Under the pieces are notes generated by a model. That model made no database searches, was not told the DNA's origin, and saw nothing but the letters and a program-made list of their open reading frames with translations. Shown one piece after another: positions 33,047 through 43,379 of a stretch of 43,379 nt of DNA (position 1 is its first letter; each line of letters opens with the position of its first letter). The DNA is taken from positions 1-43,379 of IMG/VR virus record IMGVR_UViG_3300026512_000025; one strand, written 5' to 3'. Source of the stretch: a virus. Lineage: Duplodnaviria > Caudoviricetes. Both the position numbers and the translations under genes were made by a program.

Positions 33047-33696
33047 TTACTTTGCAATAGCTAAAGTTGAGAATATAGACTTAACTGAGTTTTCATTTAA
33101 AAACTCTTCGGTTTCTTGTTTTTCAGGTTTATAGGCTGTTAATAAGTAATCATTTATAGTACTATTTTTAGTACCCATAGAGATAGCTTTTAATTGTGCC
33201 ATTAAAGCCAGTTGAACTTCTATCGAATTGTGAGGTTCTATTTGAAAATAGGCACCCCACTCATTTATTTCAGCAGTACTGAAAGTAAACTCAATTTCTC
33301 TAACACTTTTATTTAAAGTCCTTGCAACCCTAAATAAAAGCAGTCTATCGGTGTTAAACTCACCGTTTTCGGTTAGTTTCCCTCGTTACTTAACTCATCA
33401 ATTGCATCAGATATCTCACTAATAGCGTTTCCAGCTTTAACAGACAACCCTTGTAACTCTTCTACAGTCATTTTAGGTTCAATCATAGCCTCTGCAACTT
33501 TTTCAAGTTTAACTTTAACGATTTCCCCTGTGTTTAATACAGGTTTACCTTCAGCATCTAAGTTAGAGAATAATCTACCGTAGTAATCATTAGACTTACC
33601 AACACTTAGCTCTTGAATTGTAACTTTAGCATCGTTTAATGCTTTAACTTTAATCTCTTTTGTTTTAAGAGTATATTTTAAGAATGGATTTGCCAT
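33047..33696 (-). CDS. Tail assembly chaperone G-T fusion via -1 frameshift at G_GGA_AAC (33376-33382)
   Basis: Slippery heptamer immediately before the G stop. The -1 frame is open to TAA at 33047 (LLLFRVARTLNKSVREI...EWGAYF). Confidence 0.85.
33373..33696 (-). CDS. Tail assembly chaperone (gpG-like)
   Basis: Between tail tube and TMP, ends in EGN*. Confidence 0.85.
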   Translation of the reverse strand: MANPFLKYTLKTKEIKVKALNDAKVTIQELSVGKSNDYYGRLFSNLDAEGKPVLNTGEIVKVKLEKVAEAMIEPKMTVEELQGLSVKAGNAISEISDAIDELSNEGN

Positions 33697-37894: not shown

Positions 37895-39274
37895 TTACTC
37901 CTTAGGTACAACTGTGTTATCTGTATTCTTATGTAAATCAGCTGGTGGTACCTTAGAAACAGGTTTAAAAGAGTCTTTCTCAATACGCTTAACCTCATCA
38001 CTAGGGTTGCCTACATTAATCATCTCATACTGTTCTAGTGAGCTGTATAACGTCTCTATAGATAACGCACCACCTAAGTACATCTCCCACAGTAAACGAA
38101 CTTGACCTGAATCTGAAGCGAGAGCATTGTAGTCCTTGTTGATTGTAACCATACCAATAGTTGGTTTAGGCTCGTTGAGGTAATCAATTAACATATCAAC
38201 ACCCTTGTTAAGACTATACTCAATGATGTTAGCAATGACTGTAACTCTGTTAGACGCCTCAGCTGATTCATAGTACGCTTGTGTAGCAGTCTTTATCGTC
38301 TGTGAGTCCGACTGTGATGCTCTAATGACACCACTAGTGATATCCTTCTCAATAACAAGTAAATCTTTTTGCAACTCATTAATCGATGTCCCTTGCAACT
38401 CCCTCCACTGAAAGTCGCACTCATCTTTAGTACCGTTGAATATGAACGCCTCATCAACACCGATAACCAGTGCAGGCTTAGCAGTAGATGGTGAACCATC
38501 ATCCTCATCAATATCTGCACCCCATATAACAGGTACTGGACACGCTGACATATCAAGATATCTATCTTTAGATGATGTACGATTAGCATGCTTCAAATTG
38601 AGTAAAGCGATATCATAGAGTGGTGGTATCTTAGATAAACTCAACTCTACTATTGGTACATAATCCAAGTCCGTGTAGATAACATCATAAATATAAAAAT
38701 CACCATCTGCTAAACGATAGAGTGTTACAGTACCATCATCCCGCAGTACACGATACTGCTCAATCTGTTCTGTGGCAAACTCATCAACTGGCTCATCAAC
38801 TTCCTCTTTGATTACTATAAGTGTGAAGTTCCCTGTTTCGTTCTTACGCCAGTTAATAACAGCCGACCGCTTGATATTAACAAGATAAGGGTCTCCTCCC
38901 TCTACAGGTGACTCAGCCATAAGGTATGTTACACCATCAAGTGTGAGGTTAGTGGCAAGGGTTCTTGCGAACTGGTTTAGCGACACCTCAGTATCAATCT
39001 TCTTAAACAGCTCATTAACACGATTAGAATAACCAGATGTTGATATAGGTTTTCTAAAAATCATACCTACAAATGCTTCAGTAGCCCGTTTAACAAAGTT
39101 CTTAAGTGCTACATTGGATTTTCTTTCTTCAAAAGAACTATCAATCTCTTGTGGAAACTGCTTAATATACCCTTTAATAAAATCTGTACCGCTAAACACA
39201 TTATTAACAACCTTTACTTGTTGCAAGTGAGTCTTATACTCACTATGTTCAAAACCTACATTAACACTACTCAT
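37895..39274 (-). CDS. Portal protein (DUF4055-like)
   Basis: F.GMIFRKP, VINWR, EQYRVL, PPLYDIA.LNL.H motifs, follows terminase. Confidence 0.88.
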   Translation of the reverse strand: MSSVNVGFEHSEYKTHLQQVKVVNNVFSGTDFIKGYIKQFPQEIDSSFEERKSNVALKNFVKRATEAFVGMIFRKPISTSGYSNRVNELFKKIDTEVSLNQFARTLATNLTLDGVTYLMAESPVEGGDPYLVNIKRSAVINWRKNETGNFTLIVIKEEVDEPVDEFATEQIEQYRVLRDDGTVTLYRLADGDFYIYDVIYTDLDYVPIVELSLSKIPPLYDIALLNLKHANRTSSKDRYLDMSACPVPVIWGADIDEDDGSPSTAKPALVIGVDEAFIFNGTKDECDFQWRELQGTSINELQKDLLVIEKDITSGVIRASQSDSQTIKTATQAYYESAEASNRVTVIANIIEYSLNKGVDMLIDYLNEPKPTIGMVTINKDYNALASDSGQVRLLWEMYLGGALSIETLYSSLEQYEMINVGNPSDEVKRIEKDSFKPVSKVPPADLHKNTDNTVVPKE

Positions 39275-39294
39275 ATCATACCTCCGTTGTGAAA

Positions 39295-40577
39295 TTATAA
39301 CCTAAATCTTGACACTTTCGCACTCGAACGAGATATGCCGAGTAAATTGTGCGTTACATAACCAAAGGCATCATTCATGTGGTCAGTCCCGTGACTCTTA
39401 TCTGGTGAACCGTCTTTAAGGTACGACTGTTCAATTAAGTTAGATGTTAGTGTTGGACACTTATCCGTGTTGATGAGCACTCTACGATAACCTAGCGAGT
39501 TACATAGAGCTGAGTTCACTGAAACTATTCTATCTCTGACTGGTGGATTCTTCTTTGGTGCTCTAATACCGAACCCTGCTTCTCGTAGCAACCCTATATC
39601 TGACTTAGACGCATCAACTGATTTAGATGAGCGACCACTAGCATCTGGATATATCATTATCTTACGACCTGTGTCGTACCTATCCTTGATAATGTCAATC
39701 ATAGCAGGTGTATCTCTTACATCACTAATCTCATCCAAGACAAGTAACTTATCATACTCCTTGTACGCAACTACTCCACTCATATGGTTAACATTAAAAT
39801 CCATACCTATATGCAAGCTCTTTAAGTCCATCTTAATAGTCTCAAAGCTCCTGTTCTTATCAGGGTCAAAGTTAGGATATACAGTACCTGAGTTAAGATT
39901 AACAAATTTTCCGTTAAGATAAGCATCAATAAGCTGCTCAGGATAAGACTCTTTAAGGTTAATAATATACTCTTTTGGCAAAAACGGGTTATCATATGTA
40001 GATGCTTGAATAAGTTCATAACCATTACGACTCTCTTTCTTCCATCGGTTATAGACAAACCGATAACCCTCAGGTGTAGTATAGACACTAGCTGAGTTTT
40101 TAACCATAGCCATGGCGGTCTTAGGTATAATCTTCTTTCGATTACGACCTAAGAGTTTCTGCCACACCATCTCAGCCTTATCAACTTCCAAGGTATCTAA
40201 TTCATCCACATGAGAGTGATGCACCTCATAACCAATGATACGGTCTGGATTTTCTAATGACCTGAATAACACAGTACCCACATTAGGTATATCAATAATT
40301 CCATCAGTCTTATTTAATGTATAAACTAACCCTGCATTTGATAATATCTCTTCAAAACGAGGGTACATAATCTTTTTAATAAGGTCTACAGTTGGTTCGT
40401 AAATAGCAATTTGTGCGTTCTCTATCTCGAACATCTGTTTTAAGGCTTTCATAACCATAGTTTCTGACTTACCACCACCAACTAGCCGAAGCCAGACACT
40501 AGAGCAGGGAAAGATGCTTGCGAATTAATCATTTTCATTTGGTGTGGTAACATTTTTCTTCTTAGTATTCCAGCCAC
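39295..40577 (-). CDS. terL: Terminase large subunit, split into a 31-codon frame (40577-40482) and main frame (40476-39295), about 424 aa if an 8-nt gap is bypassed
   Basis: AGGAGG RBS + GTG 40577, LPHQ adenine-binding motif, interrupted Walker A SGFG*..GGKS, Walker B HVDE, TTPEG, IGMDFNV, DHMNDA nuclease motifs. Confidence 0.88.
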
Positions 40578-40612
40578 GATAAAACCTCCTTACGTATTGA
40601 ATTTTTCAACTT

Positions 40613-41203
40613 TTACTCCTTAATTATATTTAGCGGTATTTCAGGTAAATTAGCAGAAACATAGTTATTATATGCTTTAGCAGCTTCTTTGGCTGTATCA
40701 TATTTACCTAAGTTTATTTCTTTACCCATATATTTTACTCTAGCTCTATACATAACTCTACCATCTTTAAAGTTATAGCTATATTTAGACACACCCCTAT
40801 AACCTGTCTTGTTAGTTTTATGTAATAAAATAGTGTTTTGACTTTGAATAAGTTTGGTAGTCCATCTGCAATTACTAGGCTCATAGTGTCCATTTGTATC
40901 TATTCTATCCAGTGTTAATTTATCACTATAGCCATTATTTAATGCCCACTCTCTGAAAATAGTAAAATCTTCTCGCCATTGTTTGCACATTAATATACCA
41001 CGTTCAGTATATCGTCTTGAAACGCTGTTTAATGAACCAGAAGTCCTTTTCTTAGCACTATTCCATATAGTATATAATCTTGTTTTATACATACCGTGTT
41101 TACTAGGTCTGTTTTTACCACTGCAACTTCTACATAAATTTGTTTTTGGCTTTCGCTGTAACTCCCTTACTATACCACAATCTTCACATTTTATCTTATA
41201 CAT
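40613..41203 (-). mobile_element. Free-standing HNH-type homing endonuclease gene (Zn ribbon + HNH-like + AP2 domain)
   Basis: CEDC...CRSC, LTLDRIDTNGHYEPSNCRW, AP2-like TGYRGV...YRARV...NLGKYDTAKEAAKAYN. AAGGA RBS before ATG 41203. Confidence 0.88.
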
Positions 41204-41249
41204 TTGATATCCTTTAGTGTAGTATAGCATAGTTACCACCTGTTGAACC

Positions 41250-41336
41250 TTAAACCACTAGGGCTGGGAAAGATGCTTGTGAATTAATCATCTTCATCTG
41301 ATGTGGCAACATTTTTCGTCTTAGTACACCACCCAT
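41250..41336 (-). pseudogene. Truncated duplicate of the terL 5' end (28 codons)
   Basis: MGGVLRRKMLPHQMKMINSQASFPALVV*, 23 consecutive residues identical to terL N-terminus, TAATG-coupled to the upstream gene. Confidence 0.88.
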
Positions 41337-41539
41337 TAATTATCCTTAGTGGTAGCAGCAAGGGCAACGAACTGAACTAAACTTCTAATCGTTTCATCAA
41401 TACTCTTAAGCCCGTTAGCTTCTTTAATATCTCTAAGTATATAATAGGTGTCTCTATTAAGTCTAGTGCCTATATACTTTTTTGAACCTGCTTTATCTCT
41501 TGTTAGGTCTTTATCTGTAGGTATCTTAGTCGCTTTCAA
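41336..41539 (-). CDS. Small RHH-like DNA-binding protein (likely TTG start at 41539)
   Basis: GGAGGAG RBS, KYIGTRL-RDTYYILRDIKE-SIDETIRSLV strand-helix-helix pattern. Confidence 0.55.
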   Translation of the reverse strand: MKATKIPTDKDLTRDKAGSKKYIGTRLNRDTYYILRDIKEANGLKSIDETIRSLVQFVALAATTKDN

Positions 41540-41843
41540 TAAACTCCTCCGTTGCAGTAATTTGCTTAATATCATCTGCAGTCATCTCAATAAACTCAAA
41601 ACCATTGATAGCGTTAATCTGTATGTTAGTCTGAGACTCTTTAGGAGATAATCCAACTATCTTAGCCGCAGATTCAATAACATTAATAGACTCTTTAAGT
41701 GATTTTGAATCACTAGCTGTGTTAATAAACTCAGATGCTTTCTCAACAGCTGCGTAGGTAGCGTCTTTGATAATATCAGCAAGTTGCACATTACCAGAGC
41801 GAAGATTATCTATAGCTTTTTGTTGTTCATCTGTCATATTCAT
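41526..41843 (-). CDS. Putative terminase small subunit
   Basis: First gene of late arm, helical core, AKIVGL motif then beta-strand-like tail. Assignment is positional. Confidence 0.5.
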   Translation of the reverse strand: MNMTDEQQKAIDNLRSGNVQLADIIKDATYAAVEKASEFINTASDSKSLKESINVIESAAKIVGLSPKESQTNIQINAINGFEFIEMTADDIKQITATEEFIESD

Positions 41844-41896
41844 CCTTATTTATATGTTATTGTAGCAAAATGTATGTAAAGTAGCAAGGTTTAGCT

Positions 41897-41998
41897 CAGT
41901 TTGTTAACTTAAGGTTTATTAACTAACACTCTAAAAATTGTTTCCAGTTTGTTAGCTTAACCAAACTTAACTAACACTCTGAAAATTGTTCCCAGTTT
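41897..41998. repeat. Imperfect 48-bp tandem repeat x2
   Basis: cagtttgtta(a/g)cttaa...ttaactaacactct(a/g)aaaattgtt(t/c)c at 41897-41944 and 41945-41992. Confidence 0.8.
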
Positions 41999-42398
41999 AT
42001 TGGTGGTCACCATCACCTTATCCCCCTATACTTTACTCCCCCTACCCCTTACACGCATATATTTGCAAGATGTTATATAGTAGTATAGTAAAAATTTAAA
42101 ATAGTGAAAATTTAAAATGTTAGGCTTAGAGTGTGAAAGTGCTATACATAACAGCTATTTAGTACATAATAGCTATTTAGTAACCATATTATAATCAAAT
42201 AACCCTACCAAATAACCCTATTAATATAACTAATAGTTAATCCTACTATATAAGAAGATACAGTATTTGTACATTGTATGCAAGAAATAAACTTAATGAT
42301 ACAATTAGCAAAAAGAATTTATAAATTTGCAAATGCCTATAAATAGGGCTTTAAAGCGTGTTTTACCTCTTAATCATACAATTAACTTAAGTTTACTA

Positions 42399-42427
42399 TT
42401 GACACGCTTAATAGAATATGTCATAAT
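42399..42427 (+). promoter_or_regulatory. Strong early sigma70 promoter
   Basis: TTGACA-17 bp-CATAAT with extended TG, upstream CTTAAGTT. Confidence 0.75.
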
Positions 42428-42480
42428 ACGACTATCAAAACAAAATGAGTGACACAAAACACTCTCAAAAAGGATATAAA

Positions 42481-42966
42481 ATGGAAACATTACATAACAT
42501 CAACACTAACATAGCAAATAGTAGTCATACGATTAAAACAGAACGTGACAATAGGAACGTTTTAGTTGCAACATTAATTGATACTATGGTGAGTAAATCA
42601 AAAGAGTATAAAGAGGTTTACAATCTATCTAATAAGAAAGCGTATGAGATCGCTTTTGAACTTGAAGACACTAAGCAACTTGATACATATACTAAAAGAG
42701 CTTTTAAAGTAGCAAAGGCAATCATTAAAGACGGTTACAAAATTAATTATAAGTTATTATCACTTAGTCAGTGTGAACATCTCACTAAGTTCAATAAAAA
42801 CTTAGTTAATAAACTTATCGTTGAAATTAGAGACCTTGGTGAAGACGCAACTCAAGACGCAAAAAACGAGTTGTATATTGAACTTGTAAAAGAGTTGATA
42901 AATACAGCTAAAATAACTAAAACAACCAAAGTATTCAGTGCTAAGGTTGCAAGTGAGGCGGAATAA
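42481..42966 (+). CDS. Hypothetical helical protein, probably first early gene (likely start METLHN)
   Basis: AAGGA RBS before ATG 42481, downstream of strong promoter. Confidence 0.8.
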   Translation: METLHNINTNIANSSHTIKTERDNRNVLVATLIDTMVSKSKEYKEVYNLSNKKAYEIAFELEDTKQLDTYTKRAFKVAKAIIKDGYKINYKLLSLSQCEHLTKFNKNLVNKLIVEIRDLGEDATQDAKNELYIELVKELINTAKITKTTKVFSAKVASEAE

Positions 42967-42976
42967 AACCGCCTCA
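42954..42976. terminator. GC-rich hairpin at gene end
   Basis: tgaggcgg / ccgcctca stem. U-tract is weak on the + strand. Confidence 0.4.
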
Positions 42977-43379
42977 AAATACTTTTATAAAGCCTTATGA
43001 CGTTACAAAATAGTAACCTCTCATAAAGCTTTTAGAATTATTTTTAAACGACGTTACATATTCAGTAACCTCTTGTTTAATCGGCTTAATTAATTGTAGC
43101 AACAACCAACGTTTGGAATAGTTGCAGAGAGTTAAATACAAATTGAAATAAGGGAACAAATTCCCGCCTACTGTTGAAAAACCTCGTTTACGACTCACAG
43201 AAAAAACTATGCCTTGATAAAATAGTTACTTTAAAGTTGCAAGGATGTAGTAAAAGAGGTCGGTGCGCTGAATAAAGCGCTTAATACCCGTAAAGTGAGA
43301 ATAGTAGCTCACTATGTAACTATATTTTTACAGCTATAAAAATAATCGTAATTATTTTTTTTACTTTTTCAAACCTATA

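Follow-up and report, generated by a model that had tools for sequence, protein, structure and literature searches.

The window, by which we mean the whole 43,379-nt stretch of the viral record IMGVR_UViG_3300026512_000025 analysed here (33% G+C), has a layout that reads as that of a tailed phage, with replication genes on the + strand and structural genes on the - strand. The phage uses GGC rarely (7.7% of Gly codons) and TTA as its commonest Leu codon (46%), and a terL relative at 61% identity sits in a Campylobacteraceae MAG. The sequencing run that covers the window best is labelled as a hydrothermal vent metagenome and may be its source. The body of the large terminase gene, terL, matches Pfam Terminase_6N/6C, and no second terL was found among the other ORFs scanned in the window. 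Between the presumed terS and terL lies a small ORF (41336-41575, - strand) that has no Pfam or PHROGs match and whose stop overlaps the native terL start, an overlap present in most close relatives. Upstream of the small ORFs that precede terL, a region at 41897-41992 and 42021-42180 may serve in packaging or as an origin: a 48-nt unit occurs there twice in tandem (81%), along with a G-rich tract and several other short pairs of tandem repeats. Elsewhere in the window, a G-GGA-AAC heptamer (33373-33385, - strand) stands just 5' of the stop of the ORF that precedes the tape measure gene and is likely an ordinary tail-chaperone -1 frameshift site.

At the 5' end of terL, the first-pass annotation had described a truncated start, a promoter-like site, a nuclease ORF, a ribosome-binding site (RBS), a second terL start and an 8-nt interruption, and all of these parts lie on the - strand in that order (Table 1). 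The break falls at Walker A, as had been proposed, since intact kin read ALVSGFGGGKS there.

Table 1. Features of the interrupted terL locus in the window
Feature	Positions	Strand	Basis
28-codon stub of the native terL start (27 TerL codons, then one Val and TAA)	41250..41336	-	Sequence
Cassette of 781 nt that stands where the intact allele has 14 nt (5' edge placed to within a few bases)	40482..41262	-	Joint in run X2 and alignment to L001
Extended -10-like site TGCTATACT	41221..41229	-	Sequence; position only
Putative homing endonuclease, Zn-ribbon/HNH-like/AP2, 196 aa	40613..41203	-	PHROGs, homologs, fold matches
New RBS, AAGGAGG, for the second start	40585..40591	-	Sequence; L229 has this 7-mer ahead of its second start
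Recoded terL start, 31 codons, GTG at 40577, ending in the candidate take-off codon GGC (40487-85)	40485..40577	-	
8-nt coding gap: TAG (40484-82), TT, candidate landing codon GGT (40479-40477, the recipient's own Gly31 codon)	40477..40484	-	
terL body from the resume codon (G-G-K-S...) to the stop	39295..40476	-	Pfam; 99% to L001
RNA structure predicted to surround the gap (a long stem or, alternatively, a UUCG-capped hairpin at 40495-40482)	40458..40501	-	
Deletion of 716 nt in the derived allele, which lacks stub and nuclease but retains the second start	40620..41335	.	Joint 40619/41336

The two terL starts form an 80-nt repeat of 86% identity. The second encodes a 31-residue peptide ending ...ALVSGFG, followed by TAG, and 5 nt after this peptide the codons GGT GGT GGT AAG, from 40479, begin the terL body in a frame that is open to 39295. 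The promoter-like site between the stub and the nuclease gene is present where it had been reported and is followed by 6 nt, an AAGGA RBS, another 6 nt and the nuclease ATG, a spacing that recurs at the second interrupted locus, L229, described below. However, across the genome the same motif occurs no more often than chance predicts (14 seen, 15.3 expected), and a -35/-10 scan did not list the site. The bases that follow the stub stop (41249-41225) resemble a decayed copy of the stretch from Walker A to Met38, whose ATG the extended -10 appears to use, and the promoter may have arisen from the dead terL copy.

A comparison that bears on mobility is with locus L001, whose TerL is 99% identical and uninterrupted (ALVSGFGGGKS) and whose record holds no nuclease homolog. 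The stub is contiguous with the upstream gene exactly as in L001, and it is this first copy that the L001 start matches (6 of 81 nt differ, all synonymously) and not the second, which differs at 18 of 93 nt (15 synonymous changes, the start codon and two amino-acid changes). Because the L001 start corresponds to the first copy while the terL body differs from L001 at only 28 of 1185 nt, the second start is foreign, came with the nuclease gene and has diverged under constraint on the TerL peptide. Run X2, from another study, carries the intact allele at a depth of 113.7, with the joint 40481/41263 and 14 letters between. These comparisons support the earlier proposal of a putative mobile cassette, in that nuclease gene, new start and gap form a single insertion, which the 99%-identical relative does not have, and we regard it as very probable that the 781-nt insert is a mobile cassette. 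The interruption itself is a net insertion of 8 nt in the alignment with L001, as first reported, and run X4 contains an intact piece that lacks exactly 8 letters at 40478. It is unlikely that the gap is an artefact, as gap-bearing contig pieces were found in two further studies; assembly error was considered as its source and rejected because the same letters occur in other studies.

Moreover, a third allele is present in these data. In runs X5 and X6 the joint 40619/41336 marks the loss of the stub and the nuclease gene, and X2 adds a loose end; imperfect direct repeats at 40615-40638 and 41331-41354 flank the deletion. A 172-nt contig of X2 (depth 4.3) runs ungapped over 40478-40638 and then enters the upstream gene; it carries five other letters, of which the two listed (40542 and 40545) are both synonymous, and the remaining three probably fall at the repeat junction, where three mismatches lie. 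A contig of X6 covers 40380-40490 ungapped with two other letters. The gap-bearing pieces of X2 and X6 have depths of 2.6-4.3 and neither bridges the gap by the 31-letter rule, but an intact allele would differ at no fewer than 7 letters there. Parts of the nuclease gene and of the stub (41005-41303) are present in run X3. The nuclease-free allele retains the last bases of the nuclease ORF and is thus derived; it is best read as a deletion between the imperfect repeats, that is, as invasion followed by loss of the nuclease with the gap retained. The first-pass annotation had expected nuclease, duplication and gap to occur together, and had set independent distribution of gap and nuclease as the result that would count against it. 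What we find is that the layout recurs with another nuclease, and that the gap does exist without any nuclease but as a derived deletion, which is not the independent distribution that had been named.

As to the nuclease, the reading of the ORF as an HNH-AP2 gene stands on some lines of evidence and not on others. Its PHROGs matches are to HNH families only (E 2e-39), homologs at 54-64% identity give AP2 matches below the curated cut-off, and its fold matches AP2 domains weakly (best E 0.013), but Pfam returned no HNH or AP2 match for the protein itself. Together these items, each AP2 item being weak singly, point to a predicted N-terminal HNH-like part and a C-terminal AP2 part, as in IPA-HNH proteins. 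Residues D99 R100, N111-W114, Q120 and N123 are invariant in 8 rows. In classic HNH enzymes a His serves as general base; here the motif reads D-R-I-D, without His at the usual place, and the model at 99-130 is poor (pLDDT 40-50). By sequence there was no match to a solved structure. Three queries, namely the window nuclease, P0007 and the nuclease of L229, retrieved only distant relatives, none adjoining a terL of the same family, and a search of the other terL loci for this one nuclease family gave no significant match. One match to the nuclease profile, L215 (G002:C58:35435-35791), contains nine TGA stops.

If terL is expressed from the second start, the two reading frames have to be joined across the gap. 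In the 105 loci examined, some of which are one contig counted twice, four were cut before the motif, one (L112) carried an insert and 100 were intact, and all 100 of these keep G-[FY] in Walker A. Because G-[FY] is so conserved and the downstream frame offers no start codon ahead of Met38, the two frames have to be joined exactly. The candidate take-off and landing codons, GGC and GGT, can be read by one tRNA, and the TAG adjoins the take-off codon. The first GGY codon after the take-off GGC comes 5 nt on, landing there gives the exact native P-loop, and the two GGT codons after it share its frame. No reading other than hopping was found to yield the native Walker A, and it is likely that full-length TerL is expressed by a hop from GGC to GGT over the 8 nt. 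Stop readthrough at the TAG was also considered and was rejected, since the frames differ.

The RNA around the gap is predicted to be structured (z -2.4, against 0.17 for the intact allele), and only 4 of 2000 synonymous resamplings fold as well, so that the recoded codons create a structure that the intact allele does not have. The long predicted stem holds GGC on its 5' side and is without a UUCG cap, while in the alternative UUCG hairpin the take-off codon and the stop lie on the 3' arm, unlike in T4, whose UUCG-capped stem-loop has the take-off codon on its 5' side. No mini-SD (GAG, GGA, AGG or GGG) is found 5-7 nt before the landing codon. It is speculation, by analogy with Wills et al. 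(10.1101/2024.12.09.627546), that the structure might push the ribosome forward.

Other ways of joining or bypassing the two frames were weighed. It is improbable that a -1 frameshift at T-TTC-CCT, just 5' of the predicted stem, joins them without a hop: this heptamer has the X-XXY-YYZ form and precedes a stem, and from 40524 onwards the -1 frame is open, but the product would carry nine other residues in place of ALVSGF and would lose the G-[FY] that every intact locus keeps, and a frameshift leaves unexplained the gap of L229, which is in frame with two stops. Splicing, either as a micro-intron that removes the extra bases from the RNA or as a group I intron that joins the stub to the body, has a similarly small probability. 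Terminase genes with introns near the 5' end do exist (ICP1), and the gap is bracketed by a stem. Nevertheless, no group I or II ribozyme core was recognized, there being no Rfam intron match in 39000-43379 even at E values up to 5; the ORFs fill the insert and leave no room for such a core; and the nuclease-free allele has no stub, while a second start with its own RBS would be needless. That TerL is made in two pieces, as a 31-aa peptide and a chain re-started at Met38 (40458), is very improbable even though homing nucleases are known to accompany split genes (T4 genes 39/60 and Aeh1 nrdA), for the Walker A lysine and the rest of residues 32-37 would be missing from both pieces.

A different objection to the hop is that the cassette allele might be a terL that is dead or depends on a helper and that persists only because it hitch-hikes in mixed infections. 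Gap alleles are indeed minor in X2 (depth about 4 against 113.7 for the intact allele), and most interrupted lineages have close intact sisters. However, 15 of the 18 changes in the second start are synonymous, which shows amino-acid constraint; the two differences between gap alleles inside it (40542 and 40545) are synonymous as well, and it has its own strong RBS. In addition, the truncated proteins P0179 and P0182 lie 0.37 changes per site apart and yet have open frames and an intact Walker B. We consider a dead allele quite unlikely.

With the hop taken as real, there is still the question of whether the nuclease has anything to do with it. It could be a passenger or a terminase helper resembling HK97 gp74, against which the gap would not be protective; the gap does occur without the nuclease, and HNH genes preceding terL can act as packaging cofactors (Barth et al., PMC10055350). 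Against this, a nuclease of the HK97 gp74 type would be conserved beside terL across the phage group, and the window nuclease is absent from the record of the 99%-identical L001 and from the other terL loci searched, which indicates that it is not fixed in the packaging module. The nuclease-free allele is derived, keeping the end of the nuclease ORF, and the same layout holds two unrelated nucleases. A passenger or helper is thus unlikely, and a putative nuclease that targets the Walker A site of terL is the more probable reading.

The layout is not confined to the window. Sixteen new loci were read, of which 14 were intact, one was cut and one, L229 (29-950), was interrupted. In order, this last locus shows an 8-codon native stub, TTGACA-17-TATAAT, AAGGA, ATG, a nuclease gene, AAGGAGG and a second start, and its nuclease is a 222-aa HNH_3 protein unrelated to that of the window. 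Its gap follows TTT-TAG, is 51 nt long and in frame, holds an 18-bp hairpin (z -5.6) with T4-like placement and is followed by G-S-G-K-S; the codon before the resume codon is ATC, no match to the take-off TTT. The evidence on L229 comes from one contig. Intact kin of it are L224-L227 and P0177 (92%), and both in the window lineage and in L229 the recipient sequence appears to resume inside the Phe codon.

How frequent such interruptions may be is suggested by the gene calls. Among terL clusters with at least 54% identity, 10 of 60 are called from just behind Walker A, against none of 59 more distant ones, although interrupted DNA has been read for two lineages only and other truncated calls could be introns, edge effects (P0169, on a contig of 1203 nt, is a candidate) or start miscalls. 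One truncated-call member starts V-E-G-K-S, so its upstream in-frame text is not the motif. On a quick tree, 18 truncated rows need 11 changes, at least 8 of them forced. Of the five nuclease homologs closest to that of the window, three match a truncated terL in source and longest contig (4185, 2703 and 14132 nt), while chance matches of that size-and-source kind number 2 among 114 weaker homologs.

Wider scans added no further case. A DNA pattern scan of viral contigs for the junction gave 12 matches, none at a terminase Walker A; the 15 of 64 parts of the metagenome scan held no interrupted close relative; and a genome scan gave one intact prophage-like terL locus, for whose class 7 of 401 genomes matched, all with open frames. 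No duplicated terL start was found in 92 loci by a test that would miss an 8-codon stub, and a search for short called stubs gave one edge-cut protein only. Among cultured phages (60 rows spread over 805), the one that starts at residue 33 proved intact.

The insert in L112 (1505-2500), a distant relative, is of another kind: about 290 aa long, in frame and intein-like (Cys ... His-Asn), it separates G-Y-G from S-G-K-S in terL. It lies at the same codon boundary as the window gap, precedes Ser and has a weak Pfam match (E 0.012). An intein is inserted in frame and is followed by Cys, Ser or Thr. The window insert, by comparison, brings a stop and a frame change, and the next residue is Gly.

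To our knowledge, programmed bypassing in phages has been established only for T4-type topoisomerase elements. MobA elements are reported to have wobble-matched GGU/GGC pairs with UAG after the take-off codon, to end at the landing codon and to contain a recoded homologous region, and the nuclease can be lost while the gap is retained; MobA nicking is cited there as blocked by the gap and not by polymorphisms alone (Manning & Atkins, 10.1101/2022.08.31.505936). The window cassette resembles the T4 mobA/gene 60 element in its free-standing nuclease, new start, recoded target copy and intact close kin, in its Gly take-off, UAG and wobble-matched landing codon at the element's end, and in a gap that stays when the nuclease is replaced or lost. 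It differs in that the target is the Walker A of terL and not the topoisomerase large subunit; in that the whole N-terminus is re-supplied and the protein is unsplit, with no tails in place of the CTE and NTE tails and only a 28-codon stub; in a gap of 8 nt against 20-50; and in the lack of a mini-SD, a nuclease of the putative HNH-AP2 type and, as far as the alternative UUCG hairpin is concerned, a different hairpin placement. L229, with TTT and ATC, falls outside the matched-codon pattern. The window cassette would work like mobA/gene 60 but is not a member of that group, having another target gene, no split architecture and no mini-SD.

Closer in gene and gap size is Streptomyces phage Hau3, in whose terL short (7-10 nt) frame-breaking inserts with structure around them have been described and a hop proposed (Antonov et al. 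2023, PMC10732093). As we read it, the first insert, at ...KGWG|KD, lies in Walker A; the word "homing" does not occur in the text. In Hau3 the trigger is UUA, a rare codon for which regulation has been proposed as its role, whereas the window has a stop codon, a duplicated start and a nuclease, its gap opening with TAG and TTA being its commonest Leu codon. With respect to the nuclease, Barth et al. 2023 (PMC10055350) place 14% of IPA-HNH (HNH + AP2) genes near terminase genes and describe collaborative homing at the ICP1 terminase, where, as in the window, a free-standing nuclease stands beside a short 5' piece of terL. The ICP1 interruption, however, is a spliced intron, whereas the window is without a ribozyme and its 5' piece is duplicated. 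Synthetic stop-hops and Magnusiomyces byps are likewise similar in that matched codons flank a slow codon or stop and few bases are skipped, but the former are in frame and synthetic and the latter 27-55 nt long and mitochondrial (Atkins et al. 2016, PMC5009743).

Taken together, we put at roughly 65% the probability that the locus is a homing cassette that cuts intact terL near Walker A, supplies a recoded start and ends in an 8-nt hop to full-length terminase. In such a cycle the HNH-AP2 protein would cut intact terL DNA near the Walker A codons, and repair from the donor would copy the cassette into the cut gene. The cassette would provide its own recoded terL start and leave the old one stranded as a stub; ribosomes would pause at GGC-UAG and pair again with GGU, 8 nt further on, yielding full-length terminase, perhaps helped by the RNA structure made by rare codons. 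The gap, the recoding or both would block re-cutting. That the gap itself is needed for immunity has a little less than an even chance in our estimate. The recoding of the second start could protect by itself, since 8 of the 9 codons immediately 5' of the gap are not those of the intact allele.

A search of open-licence literature found no paper on a nuclease-borne terminase bypass or whole-start replacement in phages. With somewhat better than even odds, the window and L229 would represent a recurrent class of homing element that invades the terminase P-loop, re-supplies the entire gene start and ends in a hop gap, with nuclease and gap as modules that can be exchanged (HNH-AP2 and 8 nt in one case, HNH_3 and 51 nt in the other). 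Hopping would then be a third general way, beside introns and inteins, to occupy a conserved site, used where a following Gly or Ala forbids an intein. On this reading, gene callers drop Walker A in about one-sixth of the terL clusters of this clade. If the reading is true, the natural 8-nt hop in an essential gene would be a minimal and easily tested model of what bypassing needs, and the intact, cassette and nuclease-free alleles of one phage population would make up a full natural series of invasion and loss.
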